A stretch of 64,000 nucleotides of DNA from Escherichia coli (GTDB lineage: Bacteria; Pseudomonadota; Gammaproteobacteria; Enterobacterales; Enterobacteriaceae), in the NCBI RefSeq assembly GCF_024700885.2, contig NZ_CP117016.1, one strand, 5' to 3'. Below the pieces are notes generated by a model that made no database searches, was not told where the DNA came from, and saw only the letters and a list, made by a program, of their open reading frames with translations. Position numbers and translations under genes: made by a program. Positions 374-33,929 of the stretch are shown piece after piece. Numbering within the stretch: the first letter of the stretch is position 1; each line of letters opens with the position of its first letter.

Positions 374-892
374 GTGATGAAATTTAAAAAATGTCTTCTG
401 CCTGTGGCAATGTTAGCGTCATTCACTCTGGCAGGATGCCAGTCAAATGCTGATGATCATGCCGCCGATGTTTATCAAACCGATCAACTGAATACCAAAC
501 AAGAAACTAAAACCGTTAATATTATTTCCATTCTTCCCGCAAAAGTTGCCGTAGACAACTCCCAAAATAAACGAAACGCACAAGCCTTCGGCGCGCTTAT
601 TGGTGCAGTCGCTGGCGGTGTTATTGGCCACAACGTCGGGTCTGGCAGCAATTCCGGAACGACGGCAGGTGCAGTTGGCGGCGGAGCTGTTGGCGCGGCA
701 GCGGGTTCTATGGTGAATGATAAAACCTTAGTGGAAGGTGTTTCTCTAACGTATAAGGAAGGCACCAAAGTGTATACCTCCACCCAGGTGGGTAAAGAGT
801 GCCAGTTTACGACAGGTTTAGCCGTTGTTATTACCACGACGTATAACGAAACGCGTATTCAGCCAAATACCAAATGTCCTGAAAAGAGCTAA
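374..892 (+). CDS. yfgH: outer-membrane lipoprotein with glycine-zipper segment
   Basis: 172-aa ORF with signal peptide and lipobox LAGC, plus a Gly/Ala zipper (GALIGAVAGGVIGHNVG). AAGGA at 366-370. The ORF-track start is GTG 374; ATG 377 is an equally good start. Confidence 0.85.
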   Translation: MMKFKKCLLPVAMLASFTLAGCQSNADDHAADVYQTDQLNTKQETKTVNIISILPAKVAVDNSQNKRNAQAFGALIGAVAGGVIGHNVGSGSNSGTTAGAVGGGAVGAAAGSMVNDKTLVEGVSLTYKEGTKVYTSTQVGKECQFTTGLAVVITTTYNETRIQPNTKCPEKS

Positions 893-1665: not shown

Positions 1666-2148
1666 CTATCTGGTCAAAGTGTCGTACTGTTTTTCGCAGA
1701 CTCTTCCGGCTTCGGCTGCCCGGTCAGCATACTCTGCCAGTTGTCTGTTTCTCTCGAGAGATTTGCTGAACACGTCGGCAAGCAAAACTCCGGTGTCTGC
1801 GGCTGACGACCCAGCGCCGACAATGGCGTTATACTGCCTGAGCTGCTCACGGATGGCAACGAGCTGTTGCTGCAACCGGCCAGCGCGAGCGGCAGCATCA
1901 AGAGCATCATTGCGCGCCTGGTCGATCCTCTGCTGAGCTTCACGTTCATTGGTCGCTTTCTCCTGTTCGTAGTGCTGACGAACTATCTCATCTTCAGCTT
2001 TGCGGTCTTCCTTCGCCTGCGCATACCCGGCGTCGTACTGACGACTGCCGTGTGCATTCCAGGCTACAACTCCTGATATGACCAGAACAGCAAGCATCGC
2101 CATGATAACCAACTGTTTCCAGTATGCTTTTGCGAATGCCAAGATCAT
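1666..2148 (-). CDS. Rz-like inner-membrane spanin (i-spanin)
   Basis: 160 aa with an N-terminal TM helix ([18 protein letters not shown]) followed by a long charged coiled coil. Last gene of the lysis cassette; start overlaps the endolysin stop. Confidence 0.75.
1674..1910 (-). CDS. Rz1-like outer-membrane lipoprotein spanin (o-spanin) embedded in the Rz frame
   Basis: Alternative frame inside 1666-2148. [14 protein letters not shown] lipobox followed by a Pro/Ser-rich mature part. Start chosen at the Met preceding the signal peptide. Confidence 0.55.
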   Translation of the reverse strand: MMLLMLPLALAGCSNSSLPSVSSSGSITPLSALGRQPQTPEFCLPTCSANLSRETDNWQSMLTGQPKPEESAKNSTTL

Positions 2149-2774
2149 ACCGCCAGCACCTTACTGGCAGTGATGTACCGCGCGCGCCGGTCGTCGATGC
2201 CGTTCCGGCCACCATTGATAATCAGAGTTACACGTGCAATATCGCCGGTATACTTCATGCATCCTTTGCTGGCGAAGAACCACGCCGCGCTACGAGCCGC
2301 ATATTCGTCCTGCGCCAGCAGTTCAGGGCTCTCCAGCAGGTCAACCTTCAGACCGTTTCCGCAATCACGATAGTTATTCAAACCGGTAATCTGGATAAGT
2401 CCGCGCCCTCGGTAATTCCAGCCATCACCAGGGGCATTGTTCCCCATGCGTTTGCTGTATACCAGATTTGCGATCGCGCGCTGGCGCTCAAGTGGCAATG
2501 GTGGTTCACCAGCACGGCGCCCCAGTGCATTAGCCTGTCCCTGGGTGAGGCGTCCAGTCCTGACAAAGCTCGCCAGTCCGGTAACGCTGTAGTTGAAATT
2601 CTCCTGCAACCTGGTGAAGCCACCAGACTCATGCCCGACTTGAGCAATAAACATTGCCTGATCTTCGGGCTTGCTGATACCAAACTCTTTCATCGCAGAA
2701 GTGATATGCGAGAACCAGCGTGCGGCCAGCGCCTCGCTGATACTAGCAGCTCGCTGGAATTGTTTAATCTCCAT
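2145..2774 (-). CDS. endolysin, glycoside hydrolase family 19 (chitinase-like) type
   Basis: Motifs QVGHESGGF and [15 protein letters not shown] are typical of GH19 phage lysozymes. Start moved to ATG 2774 (MEIKQFQ) because GAGG lies 7 nt upstream. Confidence 0.85.
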
Positions 2775-3072
2775 GTTTAGACCTCGATACTTTGAAAATT
2801 TGAACGACGTTACCGCGCGTTTTAATAACCGCAGCAAGCATGACAGCGTTGATAATGACCTCAGATAAATCAGCTACCATTGGCGTACGAAACCAGATTG
2901 CATAGGCGACGCGAACAGGAATACTTGCCGCAGCAACAATCAGGAAATAAGCAAGCCACCCACCCCATCTTCGGTGTTGGGAGCCGTTACGCCGGAATGT
3001 AACAACGCGAACTGCAATGCCAGTACAAATAACTGCATTGGTGATAAGCAAAAAAAGCTCATGAGTTACCAT
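2764..3072 (-). CDS. holin (three predicted TM helices)
   Basis: 102 aa, three hydrophobic segments and a charged C-terminus (KVSRSKHGD). Immediately upstream of the endolysin and overlapping it. Confidence 0.6.
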
Positions 3073-3463
3073 CGTCTTTTCTCCCCGGAATTAAGTCGCG
3101 TGGATTATCGGAGCGGTGATAGAGCCATATTCCAATACGCACTGCTACAATCGCTGACACGAATGCGCCAGCAGAGAAGACAACCCCTTTCTCGAAAGAA
3201 TCCTGCGTAATGGTGGGGATTAGACTGGCTATGCCTATAAGAATTGATGCTGTTGGTTTGTAAAAGAGAAGACCACAAAGAAAGCTGAGTATCGACAAGA
3301 GTACACGACGACGAACAGGATACTCTACAGCAGAGGTAACAAAAATTACCGAACCAGAGAGTGAACCCAATGCAACTTCAGGTGGAACACCAGCAAGTAC
3401 CGATACAAGCGAACACGCACTAAGATATTGATTTAAAGAAAAACTTGTAAATTGCAATGACAT
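3059..3463 (-). CDS. multi-pass membrane protein of the lysis cassette (holin/antiholin-like)
   Basis: Four hydrophobic segments; overlaps the holin start. The ORF-track start 3484 is TTG; ATG 3463 is preceded by GGTGA and was preferred. Confidence 0.45.
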   Translation of the reverse strand: MSLQFTSFSLNQYLSACSLVSVLAGVPPEVALGSLSGSVIFVTSAVEYPVRRRVLLSILSFLCGLLFYKPTASILIGIASLIPTITQDSFEKGVVFSAGAFVSAIVAVRIGIWLYHRSDNPRDLIPGRKDDGNS

Positions 3464-3643
3464 AAAAGTCACCATTTTTATCAATCAAACACAAATTCAA
3501 TTCATGAATTCACCGCCTCAATTAAACCATATTTGGTTTGCTCTTGCCTAGTGTCATTATTATTTATATAGTGACATACCAACTTTCAAATTATAATTTA
3601 TATATTTTAGGACCAAACCCAATACATTTTAAAAGGTGTAACA

Positions 3644-4768
3644 ATGGAATCTAATGCACTAAAAAAAGCACGACTATTTATAAATGACATAAAATATTGT
3701 GTTGAAAACTTTAATATCGATTCAACTTTATATACCGCTTTCAAGCCAAGTGATATTGGTGTTAAAGGAGATGAAAGCAATACAATATATGTTGCTGACG
3801 GTAAGCTTCCGGAAAAACTGATAATTGCTTTTGGAGAAAAGGCAAAAGACAGTAAAATATTTATTGGAAAAAATGTAAAATGCAGGGGATCGAGAATTGT
3901 AATAACTCACGGTGAAAGCCTTTGTTACATCGGAAATAACTCACAACTAAATAATGTAACTATGCATATATGGTGCAAATGGGATTTTGTAGTGGTTGGA
4001 GAAGGTGTATCAGTTACCTCAACAAGTAATTGGACTACTGGAATAAACCCTGGCAATCCTTGTAACGGCATTATTATTGGTGATCACTGCCTTATGAGCC
4101 AAGAAATATCTATTAGACCTGCAGATGGACACCAAATTATCGAACTCACCACGCGAAAAGTAGTCAACGCTGCAACATCACCTATTATAATCGAACCATA
4201 TTGCTGGATCGGACAGCGCACAGCAATACTAAAAAATGTAAGAATTGGTGCATGCTCCATCGTTTCACTTGGTGCTGTAGTTACAAAATCATGTAAAAAA
4301 TTCAGCGCGCTAAGTGGCGTACCAGCAAAAGCAAGATGCATTGAAGGAAAAATGTGGCTAAGAAACAATGGGGAAGAAGCCAAGAGAATAATGCTTATGT
4401 ATGAAAAAAGATTTGCAGGCACAGCAGCACAGCAGCACAGCAGCACAGCAGCACAGCAGCACAGCAGCACAGCAGCACAGCAGCACAGCAGCACAGCAGC
4501 ACAGCAGCACAGCAGCACAGCAGCACAGCAGCACAGCAGCACAGCAGCACAGCAGCACAGCAGCACAGCAGCACAGCAGCACAGCAGCACAGCAGCACAG
4601 CAGCACAGCAGCACAGCAGCACAGCAGCACAGCAGCACAGCAGCACAGCAGCACAGCAGCACAGCAGCACAGCAGCACAGCAGCACAGCAGCACAGCAGC
4701 ACAGCAGCACAGCAGCACAGCAGCACAGCAGCACAGCAGCACAGCAGCACAGCAGCACAGTGATATAA
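3644..4768 (+). CDS. hexapeptide-repeat (left-handed beta-helix) acetyltransferase with a C-terminal (AAQQHSST)x14 tail
   Basis: LbH signature runs (IIIGDHCLMSQEISI; IIIEPYCWIGQRTAILKNVRIGACSIVSLGAVV). AGGTG RBS. AT-rich, and 7 of 11 Arg codons are AGA. Opposite strand to all neighbours. Sits where, as I recall, related phages carry serotype-conversion genes. Confidence 0.8.
   Translation: MESNALKKARLFINDIKYCVENFNIDSTLYTAFKPSDIGVKGDESNTIYVADGKLPEKLIIAFGEKAKDSKIFIGKNVKCRGSRIVITHGESLCYIGNNSQLNNVTMHIWCKWDFVVVGEGVSVTSTSNWTTGINPGNPCNGIIIGDHCLMSQEISIRPADGHQIIELTTRKVVNAATSPIIIEPYCWIGQRTAILKNVRIGACSIVSLGAVVTKSCKKFSALSGVPAKARCIEGKMWLRNNGEEAKRIMLMYEKRFAGTAAQQHSSTAAQQHSSTAAQQHSSTAAQQHSSTAAQQHSSTAAQQHSSTAAQQHSSTAAQQHSSTAAQQHSSTAAQQHSSTAAQQHSSTAAQQHSSTAAQQHSSTAAQQHSSTVI
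4421..4760. repeat. perfect tandem repeat, ACAGCAGC x 42.5 (340 bp)
   Basis: Read directly: every 8-nt unit from 4421 to 4756 is identical, plus a partial acag at 4757-4760. Confidence 0.98.
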
Positions 4769-4776
4769 TTATAATA

Positions 4777-4797
4777 ATGGCCGTAATGCGCGGCCAT
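4777..4797. terminator. hairpin between the convergent acetyltransferase and tailspike genes
   Basis: ATGGCCG-taatgcg-CGGCCAT in an AT-rich context. No clean U-run on either side. Confidence 0.4.
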
Positions 4798-4818
4798 TAC
4801 ATATTATTCATTATAGCA

Positions 4819-7800
4819 TTAACTTATTAGATCCGCTATTTTCTTTTCTTGATATGCCATCCTTATTATTTCAAATTCATCCATACGCATCATGTAAATA
4901 GATCTTGTCAATACCAAATTTCCATGTTTATCTTCTTTAATTTCATCTGCACCTTCTATTAATTTAATAATCCCAAATTCATTAACTGGAATTGGACAAG
5001 ACTCAATATCAATAGGATAAAAATCACCAGATTCGTTTTCTCTTACCAAAACACTGGTTTCTTCATACGTAATAAGACCATACTTCTTCCAATCAAGACC
5101 AGCTTTTGTAATTGCATCCTTAACTTGCTGCGCTACAACTCCAAAATGATATCTGGCATGTTCACTTCCTTTTCGTAATATTTCATCCTTCATCTTCCAC
5201 ATTTGAAATTTTACACTACCCACGGCTTCAATAAGTTCAGTCGGTATATCCGAGAATTCATCTTTGTAATTAACATCTGAAACAACAGTGACAGCATTCT
5301 TGCTATATATGTTATTCCAGTATGCTGTCGTTGTACCATTATTAACTGTTCCTATCTGCCCTGTGGGAGCAAAATAAGGATTATCATTAACTGGATTAGC
5401 TATCTCGACAAGAACTTGAGTACCGCCAAAGCTCCCGCCAGGGAACATACGAAACCTGTTTGGTAAGCGATAGTCATTAGAACCATAAGCATTCCAGCCA
5501 GCCCCATTTTCTACAGTACCACGACACCTAAATTCAACAACTTCTTGTATCTGCGGTGTTACATCATATCCACCACGTATAGACCAGTACTTATTATTGT
5601 CAGATTCTCTGCGGGAATCATGAACACGAAAAGCACCATTACTAGCATACTGAATGGCTTTTTTATATTCTGAAGTATTTTCTGAATACCCCCCCAATAT
5701 CCAGTTCTCTCCTAATTTAAAGGAAACATCAAAAGCAGAACTTATAGAAGAAAGTGGTGAGTTATTAACACGAGTTGTCAAGGCGGAATTCAATGGTAGT
5801 TCATTAGCAACCCCACGCGATTGTGAAATAAGAAATATCTGTTTTCCTCGTTTCGAATACACTCCATCGCTGTACTTTTTATCATTCGAGTATTCCCCAC
5901 CACTAACTTTATTTGTTATCGCCCACATTCTAAATCCATCGGGATCATCCGGAGCAATACCAGAAGCAGTAGAAAAAGCGGAATAATTCTTTCCTTTGTA
6001 AGTTATAATAGATGCTCCAGAATCCCAATTATCCATAGTTAGAATAATAAGGTCTCCTTCATACATATCTATACCTTCAGGTTCAAATGAATGGGGGGTC
6101 CCATACTTTGGATTATCCATAAGATTTTTGTATCCATAAAGAGAACGAGCCCCCTCAAATGAAAATTCAGCAAGAATATTACCAGAATAATCAAACTTCT
6201 GAATAATATGCAACATGAACGGATGTGTATATCCCCTTAATATATAGATGTACTTACCATCACTGGCAACATCTTGAATAACATGAGTATCAGTTCCGCG
6301 CTGCGGATGTGGAATCCTGAAATAATACAATGGTCTTGCGTCCAAACTATTGTCAAGGGATTCTACGTGTATCCTGCTGTAAACAAATACATACCAGGCA
6401 TCATCATCTGCTGTGCTATCAGTTGCAACAAGAACAACATACCTTCCATCTGAAGATACACACGGGGTTGCTGAATTATAATTCTGATAAGGATGACCAG
6501 AACCAGAATATCCAAAAAGCTGATAAGTAATCACATCAGATTCAGATGTGCTGCTCCCTTTCCAAATTAATTTTGAATAACCTTTTCCTCCATCATTTCC
6601 TCGATATGTAGGCTGGGTAACCATTTGGGTATAAATAAAAAGGTCATCATCAATAACTATCGTAGATATTCCCTGATGGTTATTTAATATTGGTGCAGTG
6701 TAAGTAGTATTTTGCACTACTGAACCATCATCAGAAAACGAGTATTCAACCAGCCTGCGCTTCTCTAAAGCAGCTGCTGTTCCTGTACCAACCCCTGGAC
6801 CATTCGCCGTAAATCGTACACCAATATTATTTTCAGCAGCCCCTATAGTTGTAAAATCAGTTGAACCTATACTTACTATTTCATATTCAATTCCGGTTAT
6901 GAAGTCACCAGCTGATGTTACTTTAGAGTTGAAGTTTCCACTACCTTCAGCACTGCCAACAACCGTTTGTAAAATAAATAATTTTTTACCATTATAATTC
7001 GCATAAGCACACCCTTGACTTGTAGCCTCACCATTTGGAAAAACTTGGGACTCACCAAAACCCATAAATGCTTCCATTAAATGGCGTTGCACCAATGTAT
7101 TACTGATATTATTACGAAGAGAAAGTAGATGACCAGTTTTGGAAAGAATCATCCCTTCCCCTGTCATTTTGCTTACATCTACTTTCAACGTATCAACAAG
7201 ATATACTCCAGGTGGAACATAAGCATTTTCAGGAGCCAGAATAAAAGAATTCGTATCATCAGTTATACCATCTCCAACAGCAGCATAATCTTTCACACTT
7301 ACTGTATCACGCATCTTATCCTGGAACGTTCTGTATACAGCTCCAGCACCATACTGGATAAACCATCCGAAACCACCGACAACACCAGCAATTGCAGCAT
7401 CCACATACTTACGCATTGAACGATTATTTACAGCGTCCTGCTCAAGTGATGGATCTGCAAGGTTAGAAATTTTGTTTTGCTTTGCATCGTAATATTTTGC
7501 AAGCAGCGAGGGCTTCATCAATGCACGTCTGAACCACCCAAAACATCGCTGGATCAGCATCGTCAGGTAGTCGAATGCATCCTCATGAACTTCGGGGAAA
7601 AATTTTCCCTGATTGCGAAGATCAGTCTCCTGCACCACATCAAGCACACGCTCTATCGTAATTCGCCAGCCAGCAGCAAGCGGCGACGGAAGAACCACTT
7701 CACCGCCACTATAAGTGCCCGCTCCAGTTACCTTATAACCGGTATCAAGCACCAATTCTGTTACGTTCCCGTTCAGATCAGACACCTGAACAACCAGGTC

Positions 7801-7893
7801 GGATTTTTTGAAAATACGGAAGGTATACGGAAATGATGTCGTAACTCCGTTACCGGTGTATTCGTTGTGGTCAACTTCGGTTGAGACCGTCAT
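4819..7893 (-). CDS. tailspike / receptor-binding depolymerase with C-terminal intramolecular-chaperone (peptidase S74-like) domain
   Basis: 1024 aa. The N-terminus MTVSTEVDHNEYTGNGVTTSFPYTFRIFKKSDLVVQV matches the conserved particle-binding domain I recall for epsilon15/phiV10 tailspikes. The C-terminal 153 aa begin SDVNYKDEF, the S74 auto-cleavage pattern. Confidence 0.85.
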   Translation of the reverse strand: MTVSTEVDHNEYTGNGVTTSFPYTFRIFKKSDLVVQVSDLNGNVTELVLDTGYKVTGAGTYSGGEVVLPSPLAAGWRITIERVLDVVQETDLRNQGKFFPEVHEDAFDYLTMLIQRCFGWFRRALMKPSLLAKYYDAKQNKISNLADPSLEQDAVNNRSMRKYVDAAIAGVVGGFGWFIQYGAGAVYRTFQDKMRDTVSVKDYAAVGDGITDDTNSFILAPENAYVPPGVYLVDTLKVDVSKMTGEGMILSKTGHLLSLRNNISNTLVQRHLMEAFMGFGESQVFPNGEATSQGCAYANYNGKKLFILQTVVGSAEGSGNFNSKVTSAGDFITGIEYEIVSIGSTDFTTIGAAENNIGVRFTANGPGVGTGTAAALEKRRLVEYSFSDDGSVVQNTTYTAPILNNHQGISTIVIDDDLFIYTQMVTQPTYRGNDGGKGYSKLIWKGSSTSESDVITYQLFGYSGSGHPYQNYNSATPCVSSDGRYVVLVATDSTADDDAWYVFVYSRIHVESLDNSLDARPLYYFRIPHPQRGTDTHVIQDVASDGKYIYILRGYTHPFMLHIIQKFDYSGNILAEFSFEGARSLYGYKNLMDNPKYGTPHSFEPEGIDMYEGDLIILTMDNWDSGASIITYKGKNYSAFSTASGIAPDDPDGFRMWAITNKVSGGEYSNDKKYSDGVYSKRGKQIFLISQSRGVANELPLNSALTTRVNNSPLSSISSAFDVSFKLGENWILGGYSENTSEYKKAIQYASNGAFRVHDSRRESDNNKYWSIRGGYDVTPQIQEVVEFRCRGTVENGAGWNAYGSNDYRLPNRFRMFPGGSFGGTQVLVEIANPVNDNPYFAPTGQIGTVNNGTTTAYWNNIYSKNAVTVVSDVNYKDEFSDIPTELIEAVGSVKFQMWKMKDEILRKGSEHARYHFGVVAQQVKDAITKAGLDWKKYGLITYEETSVLVRENESGDFYPIDIESCPIPVNEFGIIKLIEGADEIKEDKHGNLVLTRSIYMMRMDEFEIIRMAYQEKKIADLIS

Positions 7894-33117: not shown

Positions 33118-33929
33118 AAGAAATCCTCCCATGCTTCAGGGCTGTTCCAGTGCGGAACGTTGTTATCAGGTAATGTTGATTGCTTCTGTCTGCTAATCTG
33201 CAGCCGCCTTGCCAGCTTCTGCTCCCACTGTGCCTGATGGTATGCCTTACCCTCAGCCATCCAGTAAATTCTGAACTCTGCAAGTTCCTGTGCCGTTGGC
33301 AGACTGTCCAGGTAGATCCCCTGCAATGAGCTTTTCCGAAGAAAGTCATCTGATGGCTGCCATTGTTCATGCATGACAAATTTTCCTAATTGCCCTGGTC
33401 CACCAGGAGGAACAAAGTTATTCATCACGGCGTTGTTTGCTCCGGGGTCATGAGGCACAGAATCCCCGCTTTTTGTCCTGCTCTCCCTCTCTTGGTTAAA
33501 TGACTGGTTATATGACTGGTTCTGGATCCCGTTTTTGGGATCATTCAACATCCCGTTTTTGGGATCATTCAACATCCCGTTTTTGGGTATATTCCCGTTT
33601 TCGGGAACATTACCGTTTTCGGGTTCATTACGTCCTTCTAGGTTGCCTTTAATGTTCCCTTTTTTGGTTATATTAAGAGAGAAAACCCGCACTCTTTTCG
33701 TCGCTCCCTTTCTCTCTCCGGTATCTGAAATAAGCCCCATTTTCATGAGCGATATAAGCCCGGCCTGCACGGTTTTTTTATTCAGGCAAGTGTCTTTAAC
33801 GAGGCGTTCTATGCTGGGGTAGCAGAGGTTATATTCATCGGCTCTGTCAGCCATCGAGAGCAGTATGAGCTTTAATGACGAGCTACCTGGATCTGTCTCC
33901 CAGGCCCAATCTGTTGCATGTCTGCTCAT
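33114..33929 (-). CDS. lambda O-like replication initiator (N-terminal winged-HTH), contains the origin iterons
   Basis: 271 aa. N-terminal DNA-binding-like region and an internal NG-rich repeat encoded by the iterons. Immediately upstream of the P-like gene. Confidence 0.7.
   Translation of the reverse strand: MSRHATDWAWETDPGSSSLKLILLSMADRADEYNLCYPSIERLVKDTCLNKKTVQAGLISLMKMGLISDTGERKGATKRVRVFSLNITKKGNIKGNLEGRNEPENGNVPENGNIPKNGMLNDPKNGMLNDPKNGIQNQSYNQSFNQERESRTKSGDSVPHDPGANNAVMNNFVPPGGPGQLGKFVMHEQWQPSDDFLRKSSLQGIYLDSLPTAQELAEFRIYWMAEGKAYHQAQWEQKLARRLQISRQKQSTLPDNNVPHWNSPEAWEDFL
33528..33623. repeat. origin iterons: five copies of (C/A)CCGTTTT(T/C)GGG spaced 24, 24, 18, 18 bp
   Basis: Cores at 33528, 33552, 33576, 33594 and 33612, inside the O-like gene as in ori-lambda. 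Confidence 0.7.

Follow-up and report, generated by a model that had tools for sequence, protein, structure and literature searches.

NeuO, the capsule acetyltransferase of the Escherichia coli prophage CUS-3, carries a heptanucleotide array 2 nt after its start codon; the enzyme is on only at multiples of three repeat units, and the length of the array scales its catalytic efficiency (PMC3046976). In phage phiV10 (NC_007804), the + strand gene oac and the tail fibre gene converge, with the gene of a holin-like membrane protein on the other side of oac; in the annotation of this record, oac serves to acetylate the O-antigen of the host, for superinfection immunity. Here, we analysed a stretch of 64,000 nucleotides from an E. 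coli chromosome (assembly GCF_024700885.2, contig NZ_CP117016.1; hereafter the window, at its full length), in which a ~39-kb prophage inserted between yfgI (908-1447) and guaA carries an acetyltransferase gene next to a tailspike gene. This pair is probably a NeuO-like mobile capsule-modification locus, with a different construction and a different capsule. The acetyltransferase gene is a strong candidate for the K18 determinant, which is reported to lie outside the kps locus. The module consists of the following features.

3644-4768, + strand: acetyltransferase, complete open reading frame (ORF) from the ORF list, 374 aa in the window allele, with a tail ending in ...SSTVI*
3644-4417, + strand: catalytic domain of the acetyltransferase, aa 1-258, ending in ...MYEKRFAG (PDB sequence search, AlphaFold model and Foldseek)
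4419-4760, + strand: octanucleotide array, (GCACAGCA)x42.8, with 100% matches (Tandem Repeats Finder)
4819-7893, - strand: tailspike, complete ORF of 1024 aa from the ORF list
7321-7893, - strand: N-terminal particle-anchoring domain of the tailspike, aa 1-191 (DNA matches of ~90% identity in some 490 E. coli genomes)
5281-7320, - strand: receptor-binding region of the tailspike with a five-bladed beta-propeller, aa 192-871 (predicted model)
5095-5280, - strand: Peptidase_S74 intramolecular chaperone of the tailspike, aa 872-933, starting at the SDVNYK motif with Ser872 (PF13884, E=9.6e-9)

The typing of E. coli K antigens was recently rebuilt on genomics, and K18 versus K22 is named there among the cases that could not be resolved, the acetyltransferase not being in kps (PMC13171606). 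According to this 2026 paper, K18 is acetylated K22, the K18 and K22 capsule clusters are 100% identical and hold no candidate acetyltransferase, and the responsible gene lies outside the kps locus. All three antigens, K18, K22 and K100, belong to the ribosyl-ribitol phosphates (Rodriguez et al. 1988, cited in PMC13171606). The locus described here offers a concrete, testable candidate to fill this gap, for which AST205 (lysogen) and AST19 (empty site) are natural comparators. We think it rather more probable than the opposite that the spike recognises the K18/K22 capsule, and that the enzyme O-acetylates this capsule in the lysogen, thereby converting K22 to K18 and, by analogy with the known systems, lowering re-adsorption. 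A preliminary description of this DNA held that the target glycan could not be named from the sequence. Genomic context nevertheless points to a likely one, namely the ribosyl-ribitol-phosphate group 2 capsule of kps type K18_K22 rather than the O-antigen.

The acetyltransferase is present at the same locus in six independent complete E. coli genomes (E100341, MLI114, SW070919, AST205, PAR and EC0026B). In AST205, the group 2 kps locus lies at pheV, with region 2 between kpsFEDUCS and kpsTM; this region encodes a protein of 378 aa, a CDP-ribitol synthase and a TagF-like polymerase of 1107 aa, and contains no neu genes. EC958, which belongs to a group with an 88%-identical variant of region 2, is O25b:K100:H4 (PMC6881718). 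The region 2 protein identities between AST205 and EC958 (96.8, 98.906 and 81.9%) reproduce the values published for K18_K22 versus K100 (97.098, 98.908 and 82.13%; PMC13171606 supplement), and the hosts thus fit the K18_K22 genotype. We counted the association over 5426 complete E. coli genomes, taking at least 99% identity as presence of region 2. The AST205-type region 2 occurred in 18 genomes, 10 of which carried the acetyltransferase, versus none of the 5408 others (Fisher p=7e-27; 8.5e-17 when the five derivatives of EC0026B count as one). The acetyltransferase was absent from all 113 complete genomes with the K100-type, 88%-identical variant.

Phages of the epsilon15/phiV10 type classically use the O-antigen, and LbH (left-handed beta-helix) O-acetyltransferases are also found in O-antigen clusters. 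Moreover, the gene occupies the very slot of phiV10 oac, with the same position and orientation in NC_007804, as the preliminary description had stated. An alternative explanation might therefore be that the enzyme acetylates the O-antigen or its precursor, like phiV10 Oac, and that the tailspike is O-antigen-specific. However, the carriers differ in O-antigen, which is O7 in AST205, E100341 and EC0026B and O15 in MLI114. The module of the O15 host MLI114 is identical to that of the window except for one repeat unit (43 versus 42 units, with 0 differences over 8.2 kb of flank) and near-identical to that of the O7 hosts, which argues that it tracks the capsule and not the O-antigen. In addition, ~80 other O7 genomes lack the acetyltransferase gene, the enzyme is soluble and not of the Acyl_transf_3 type, and its homologues are found in ABC-transporter capsule loci rather than in Wzy-type clusters. 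With carriers of both O7 and O15, we rejected the O-antigen as the enzyme target, and we regard this alternative as very improbable.

By sequence and model comparison, the enzyme is a soluble LbH acetyltransferase of the NeuO/OatWY structural class, in line with the preliminary description, which had called it NeuO-like. A phmmer search against PDB sequences gave NeuO (3JQY) as top match (E=2.7e-18), with OatWY, a capsule acetyltransferase of meningococci, also among the top matches. The catalytic His147 and Trp171 of NeuO align with His163 and Trp188, and R158, D161, H163 and W188 are invariant across 43 aligned homologues. In NeuO-type enzymes, the Trp lines the acetyl-CoA tunnel. The AlphaFold (AF2) model was built from the homologue alignment and has a predicted local distance difference test score (pLDDT) of 91.5. 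In it, a left-handed beta-helix is flanked by one helix at the N-terminus and another at the C-terminus, the latter reaching its end at residue 258; past residue 262 the model is disordered, with a tail pLDDT below 50. Foldseek searches with this model ranked NeuO and OatWY first (TM up to 0.83). The enzyme is probably trimeric and acetyl-CoA-dependent. Pfam Hexapep remained sub-threshold (19.4 bits versus a cutoff of 27), and hence Pfam alone would miss the enzyme class. Pfam found no match to Acyl_transf_3 and the protein has no membrane domain, while RefSeq labels it as 'acyltransferase' or 'hypothetical protein'. Antibiotic and xenobiotic acetyltransferases, the family that the preliminary description had set against its own interpretation, came far behind NeuO in the PDB sequence search (E ~0.01).

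The homologues of the enzyme point to the same type of capsule. They are 45-72% identical over 94-100% coverage, and their sources include Aeromonas caviae, Pantoea anthophila, Castellaniella, one kps type of E. coli and metagenomic contigs. A TagF-like Glyphos_transf polymerase adjoins eight of the nine homologues examined, and seven of those eight lie in KpsM/KpsT/KpsD/KpsC/KpsS capsule loci. The two closest homologues (71-72% identical) directly follow genes for the polymerase, a CDP-ribitol synthase and a 380-aa protein, which are 64%, 73-75% and 50-51% identical, respectively, to their counterparts in the E. coli K18_K22-type region 2. Probably, the prophage gene was captured from such in-locus acetyltransferases of TagF-type capsule clusters. 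These enzymes share the full length and the same invariant residues with the prophage enzyme, but they are encoded by chromosomal region 2 genes instead of phage cargo and lack a repeat tail; none of them was found to be characterised in the literature searched. Taken together, family context, host genotype and O-antigen diversity are three independent lines that point to a teichoic-acid-like capsule as the target. Our search of the literature on octanucleotide repeats, prophage acetyltransferases and K18/K22 O-acetylation, with most subscription journals outside its reach, found no paper on this prophage gene.

Some of the homologous loci showed further features. Homologue P0020 (Enterobacterales bacterium CwR94, L031 9001-14026) lies in a flagellar cluster beside Glyphos_transf, GT2 and FliB-like genes, a context which hints that flagellin, and not a capsule, is modified with a polyol phosphate. 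A protein of ~300 aa is encoded directly upstream of the homologue in Pantoea (L012 9091-9996) and in a metagenomic TagF-type locus (L030 8051-8953). The Pantoea protein scores just below the threshold for PF21311, the receptor-binding domain of phages with a five-bladed propeller (23.1 versus 23.7 bits), and no Pfam match is on record for the metagenomic one. A BLASTP comparison of the tailspike with this 301-aa propeller-like Pantoea protein was not significant (E about 1-3). The homologues of Aeromonas caviae and of a metagenomic contig each overlap a GDSL/SGNH esterase gene that follows them (L009 10776-11474; L013 10788-11444), and homologue and esterase may form an acetylation/de-acetylation pair. 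Within E. coli, a 51%-identical paralogue lies in kps region 2 of another capsule type (L033 8950-9800; nine complete genomes), between GT2 and a 1249-aa TagF-like polymerase. Identification of homologue P0017 as the K2ab acetyltransferase found no support, as its gene was present in only nine complete genomes and CFT073 (O6:K2) was not among them.

The tailspike, whose sequence recurs unchanged in the annotation of four genomes (WP_077763239.1), combines a widespread anchor with a receptor-binding region. Its anchor is common to phiV10/epsilon15-type spikes, including those of phiV10 and phiv142-3 with which it was aligned, and to many other E. coli prophage spikes; in the PDB sequence search, aa 1-212 matched Dpo31 (E=1.4e-32). 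The same search gave no match covering aa 213-847, apart from a marginal stretch of 19 residues. We modelled aa 192-871 from 24 homologues, including a Shouchella clausii prophage protein (pLDDT 82.7). The structural comparison that the preliminary description had proposed for this part of the protein returned, with Foldseek, a five-bladed propeller resembling teichoic-acid-binding proteins of staphylococcal phages, including 80alpha and P68. The wall teichoic acid of S. aureus is a poly-ribitol-phosphate. Based on this model, the tailspike head is predicted to bind, and possibly to cleave, a ribosyl-ribitol-phosphate capsule. The nearest described relative, Gp45 of S. aureus phage phi11 (PDB 5EFV; relatives 80alpha, P68 and NF5), shares the five-bladed beta-propeller platform domain by model. 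Yet, sequence identity is only 10-14%, and the E. coli spike differs in its podovirus anchor and S74 chaperone. Adsorption of phi11 needs GlcNAc on wall teichoic acid (PMC4901313). The phage thus reads GlcNAc on the ribitol-phosphate polymer of a Gram-positive host, whereas a capsule is the predicted ligand of the E. coli spike.

At the C-terminal side, PF13884 scored 35.9 bits versus a cutoff of 22, with a Ser...Lys motif at the predicted cleavage site, and the PDB matches of this part were the chaperone domains 6EU4, 3GUD and 3GW6. From its family, the tailspike is predicted to cleave itself at Ser872, which would leave aa 1-871 as the mature spike. The S74 domain noted in the preliminary description is thus present, but it is not specific to capsule depolymerases as was suggested there, and the propeller is the informative part.

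In PAR and EC0026B, the acetyltransferase is the same but is accompanied by another head domain, which is unrelated to the first, measures 923 aa and likewise comes with S74. Type A and type B heads show no significant similarity beyond the anchor. Even so, the acetyltransferases beside the two types are 99.7% identical, and each head type is limited to genomes with both the K18_K22-type region 2 and the acetyltransferase. One acetyltransferase with two unrelated heads indicates that the pairing is with the capsule type and not with a particular spike. Hence, the earlier idea that the enzyme is paired with the phage's own tailspike stands at the level of the capsule type, but not for one individual spike.

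We propose that the module would function as a serotype-conversion and host-recognition unit of a phiV10-like prophage in E. coli whose group 2 capsule resembles a teichoic acid. In the spike, the conserved N-terminal domain would anchor the protein to the virion, the propeller head would read the capsule, and the self-cleaving S74 chaperone would mature the spike. The acetyltransferase would be expressed in the lysogen from its own promoter. It would then acetylate the capsule polymer in the cytoplasm before export by KpsMT, turning the K22 structure into acetylated K18. Assembly of ABC-transporter capsules is finished inside the cytoplasm, as it is with NeuO and OatWY, so that the polymer would be within reach of a soluble acetyltransferase. 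Finally, the acetylated capsule would lower the adsorption of the same or related phages. This last step is proposed because of the analogy with phiV10 Oac and NeuO, the latter of which is reported to increase phage resistance (PMC13001214).

Several points weigh against the proposed conversion of K22 to K18. The evidence on these strains is wholly computational. The kps type comes from matched percent identities rather than from a direct comparison with a reference, and the searchable collections leave out the K18a, K18ab and K22 reference genomes (GCA_977946865, GCA_977946875 and GCA_977947955; PMC13348134). The 18 region 2 genomes may represent few lineages, though two O types are present. 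At the level of the proteins, the oxyanion residue Arg137 of NeuO aligns with Gln153 of the acetyltransferase, the fold match of the tailspike comes from a predicted model with only 24 sequences, and phi11 Gp45 binds GlcNAc decorations, which are not known on the K18/K22 polymer. The promoter that would drive the gene is a consensus match only.

Furthermore, the association with the K locus could come solely from the host range of the phage, with the enzyme acting elsewhere. The kps link would then mirror only the host range set by the tailspike, and the acetyltransferase would be a moron with another substrate (a small sugar, a xenobiotic or another polymer) or would be inactive. The missing Arg137 would fit this explanation, as would homologue P0006 outside any capsule locus, P0020 in its flagellar cluster, and the maltose, galactoside and streptogramin acetyltransferases that appear as detectable relatives in the PDB search (E 1e-6 to 1e-2). 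However, the best sequence and structure matches are the capsule-polymer acetyltransferases NeuO and OatWY, the closest homologues belong to ribitol-phosphate capsule clusters that are orthologous to the one of the host itself, and the catalytic residues are invariant. The gene has also been kept in decayed prophages. In SW070919 (L003 7937-9150), an IS3 element sits inside the tailspike gene, while in AST205 (L004 8280-8762) the virion-structural block is gone and the tailspike abuts a truncated replication gene; in both, the acetyltransferase is intact, with 50 and 16 repeat units, respectively. This fits cargo that is useful to the host. All in all, we consider an association through host range alone to be quite unlikely.

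Our results support the interpretation given in the preliminary description, which did not mention the most unusual feature of the locus, the 3' octanucleotide array. The array follows codon 258, makes up the last 116 codons of the acetyltransferase ORF and encodes the disordered C-terminal tail. It reads as (AAQQHSST)n in all three forward frames, with no stop in any of them. Three units of 8 nt make 24 nt, and therefore every forward frame yields the same octapeptide AAQQHSST. Since 8 is not a multiple of 3 and the unit is stop-free in all frames, any copy number leaves the full catalytic domain. The length of the array modulo three sets one of three endings: ...TVI*, ...AAQ* or a hydrophobic one of 23 residues, ...SDIIIIMAVMRGHYILFIIALTY*. 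In simulated alleles of 42, 43 and 44 units the catalytic domain was complete in each and the tails differed, and all three exit frames occur in natural genomes with an intact catalytic domain. Hence, the array cannot work as an on/off switch of the NeuO type. The number of units, which would change through replication slippage, differs widely among the complete genomes:

Window: 42 units
E100341: 52 units
MLI114: 43 units
SW070919: 50 units
AST205: 16 units
PAR: 22 units
EC0026B: 3 imperfect units (GCACAGCA-GACAGCA-GCACAGCG)

In public data, the 90% protein cluster of the acetyltransferase holds 125 distinct sequences, and the 15 listed differ mainly in the length and the ending of the tail. 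Copy numbers from draft short-read assemblies, many of them 'partial', were left out of quantitative use. The commonest public allele (FA[G/D]TADSSTAK*, 71 contigs) lacks the expanded repeat and all three phases occur, so that the array may be selectively neutral. An array that is a neutral microsatellite, tolerated behind the catalytic domain without effect on enzyme or phage, would also be expected from its widely differing lengths, from the lack of a repeat tail in all of the ~45 homologues from other species (whose tails consist of 5-25 unrelated residues), and from its predicted DNA folding, which is no stabler than that of shuffled sequences (z = +0.8 and -0.4) and gives no support for a structural role. 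On the other hand, long perfect arrays of up to 52 units (416 bp) occur in independent strains from four continents and beside both tailspike types. Among E. coli prophages, the one further capsule acetyltransferase known is NeuO, which has a coding repeat that scales activity (PMC3046976), and in both prophages the array sits at the acetyltransferase end facing the 3' end of the tailspike gene. We give the neutral microsatellite close to an even chance.

That the array tunes the activity, stability or localisation of the enzyme appears doubtful, though it deserves consideration. A more elaborate version, which we regard as unlikely, would make the array a frame-neutral 'rheostat' contingency element, whose three alternative C-termini, one of them hydrophobic, set the level or location of capsule O-acetylation. 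The serological factors K22, K18a and K18ab, whose kps loci are identical, would then be absence/presence and repeat-length states of a single prophage gene, and the two tailspike heads would be suited to acetylated versus non-acetylated capsule.

Two further observations concern repeat length. The K18a and K18ab reference assemblies measure 5,068,856 and 5,069,166, a difference of 310 bp that is near the length of 39 octanucleotide units (312 bp; PMC13348134 Table 1). This difference may be coincidental, the two having been sequenced by different technologies. An interrupted allele in IMG/VR contig IMGVR_UViG_2585427789_000028 (L028 1778-2021) consists of 16 units, GCACTGTGATAA and then 13 units, where GCACTGTGATAA copies part of the downstream end and contains stop codons. 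It may be a genuine variant of the duplication type, or else an artefact of the assembly.

The comparison with NeuO reveals a parallel design as well as clear differences. Both genes encode soluble LbH acetyltransferases with conserved catalytic His and Trp, and NeuO is the top match in sequence and structure, even though identity is only ~30% over the LbH core. Both lie on temperate podovirus prophages directly beside a capsule-specific S74-type tailspike (predicted as such in the window), in hosts with a group 2 capsule of the ABC-transporter type. Both contain a coding repeat with a unit that is not divisible by three, read as a disordered peptide repeat, whose copy number varies among strains. 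In both, the array lies at the gene end facing the 3' end of the tailspike gene (in CUS-3, the tailspike spans 2526-5471 and the neuO repeat 2235-2367), so that the geometry is parallel despite the opposite gene orientation. However, the unit is 8 nt here (GCACAGCA, giving AAQQHSST) and 7 nt in NeuO (AAGACTC, giving RLKTQDS). The array is located 3' here, where no frame truncates the enzyme and no on/off switch results, in contrast to the 5' array of NeuO. The tail is uncharged instead of basic, and the gene converges on the tailspike whereas neuO follows the tailspike in tandem. The phage backbone is Uetakevirus instead of P22-like Lederbergvirus, and the host capsule is K18_K22-type ribitol phosphate instead of polysialic acid (alpha-2,8, K1 hosts).

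The prophage surrounding the module is, on sequence grounds, phiV10/epsilon15-like (Uetakevirus). Outside the module, its DNA matches the Uetakevirus phages phiV10, phiv142-3 and HEMP4 with 94.7-96.6% identity over 53-63% of 10.5 kb. Gene order also agrees, with injection proteins, tail fibre, conversion slot, holins, GH19 endolysin, Rz and att. Compared to phiV10 Oac, an O157 O-antigen acetyltransferase, the gene in the window has the same slot and convergent orientation between holin genes and tail fibre gene on a 95%-identical backbone. It also has the same proposed logic, namely modification of the receptor glycan of the phage's own spike. In contrast, Oac is an integral-membrane protein acting on the O-antigen and its gene has no repeat array, whereas the enzyme described here is a soluble LbH protein in the context of a cytoplasmically assembled capsule. 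The acetyltransferase gene was found in none of 50,697 sequenced phage records, the best match being CUS-3 neuO with 36% identity over a third of the query. An exact look-up of its 374-aa product likewise gave no record. The attachment site is empty in AST19, a K18_K22-type O7 strain of the same series as AST205, in which yfgI is directly followed by guaA. The remaining features around the module are as follows.

1666-3484, - strand: lysis cassette at the yfgI-proximal prophage end, with two holins, GH19 endolysin and DUF2514 Rz-like gene (Pfam and annotation of identical loci)
3544-3572, + strand: candidate sigma-70 promoter of the acetyltransferase, TTGCCT-17-TATAGT, in a spacer of 28% GC (consensus scan; consensus match only)
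3633-3638, + strand: Shine-Dalgarno sequence AAGGTG of the acetyltransferase (sequence read)
4775-4799, no strand assigned: GC-rich hairpin with a 10-bp stem, TAATGGCCG-TAATGCG-CGGCCATTA, between the convergent stops (terminator scan)

As stated in the preliminary description, the acetyltransferase and the tailspike form a convergent pair, and the former is the sole + strand gene between the lysis cassette and the tailspike. The two genes meet stop to stop with a gap of 50 nt. The hairpin in this gap, which is kept beside both tailspike types with 1-2 substitutions, is probably a bidirectional terminator. From the candidate promoter we infer that the acetyltransferase would be expressed independently in the lysogen. 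Its catalytic part has a GC content of 36.5% and the spacer upstream 28.3%, compared to 50.9% for the lysis genes and 48.5% for the whole prophage. The gene is thus much more AT-rich than the lysis genes, as had been described, but not more so than the receptor-binding part of the tailspike (37.3%), and its own 3' repeat reaches 62.6%. Because the receptor-binding part is as GC-poor as the catalytic part, the low-GC, foreign-looking island comprises the acetyltransferase and the tailspike head domain, and not the enzyme gene alone.

If the proposed function is true, the locus would be the second E. coli case, after NeuO of CUS-3, of a prophage rewriting a group 2 capsule beside a spike that reads that capsule. 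A hypermutable coding repeat would again be part of the arrangement, now with another build (8 nt, at the 3' end and frame-neutral), and comparison with NeuO would reveal the essentials of such 'mobile contingency loci'. Capsule O-acetylation alters antigenicity and phage susceptibility, and thus bears on glycoconjugate vaccines and phage therapy. In addition, the predicted teichoic-acid-type propeller on the spike of a Gram-negative phage provides a lead for enzymes or binders of ribitol-phosphate capsules, including K100- and Hib-related polymers.

Some minor observations concern other parts of the window and its relatives. The early region of the prophage contains three adjoining short tandem arrays at 33493-33631, with a period of 12 (x2.4), a period of 24 (x2.6, perfect; ATCCCGTTTTTGGGATCATTCAAC) and a period of 18 (x3.1), which are possibly iterons or operator repeats. 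The gene yfgH beside the attachment site (window 374-892; L001/L004/L006 890-1409) is annotated as frameshifted in E100341, AST205, EC0026B and AST19, and is intact in MLI114, SW070919 and PAR. AST205 has a second prophage near dacD/sbcB (L018 25761-28346), which is degraded and P22-like and encodes an 861-aa tailspike with Head_binding, endosialidase N-terminal extension and S74 domains.

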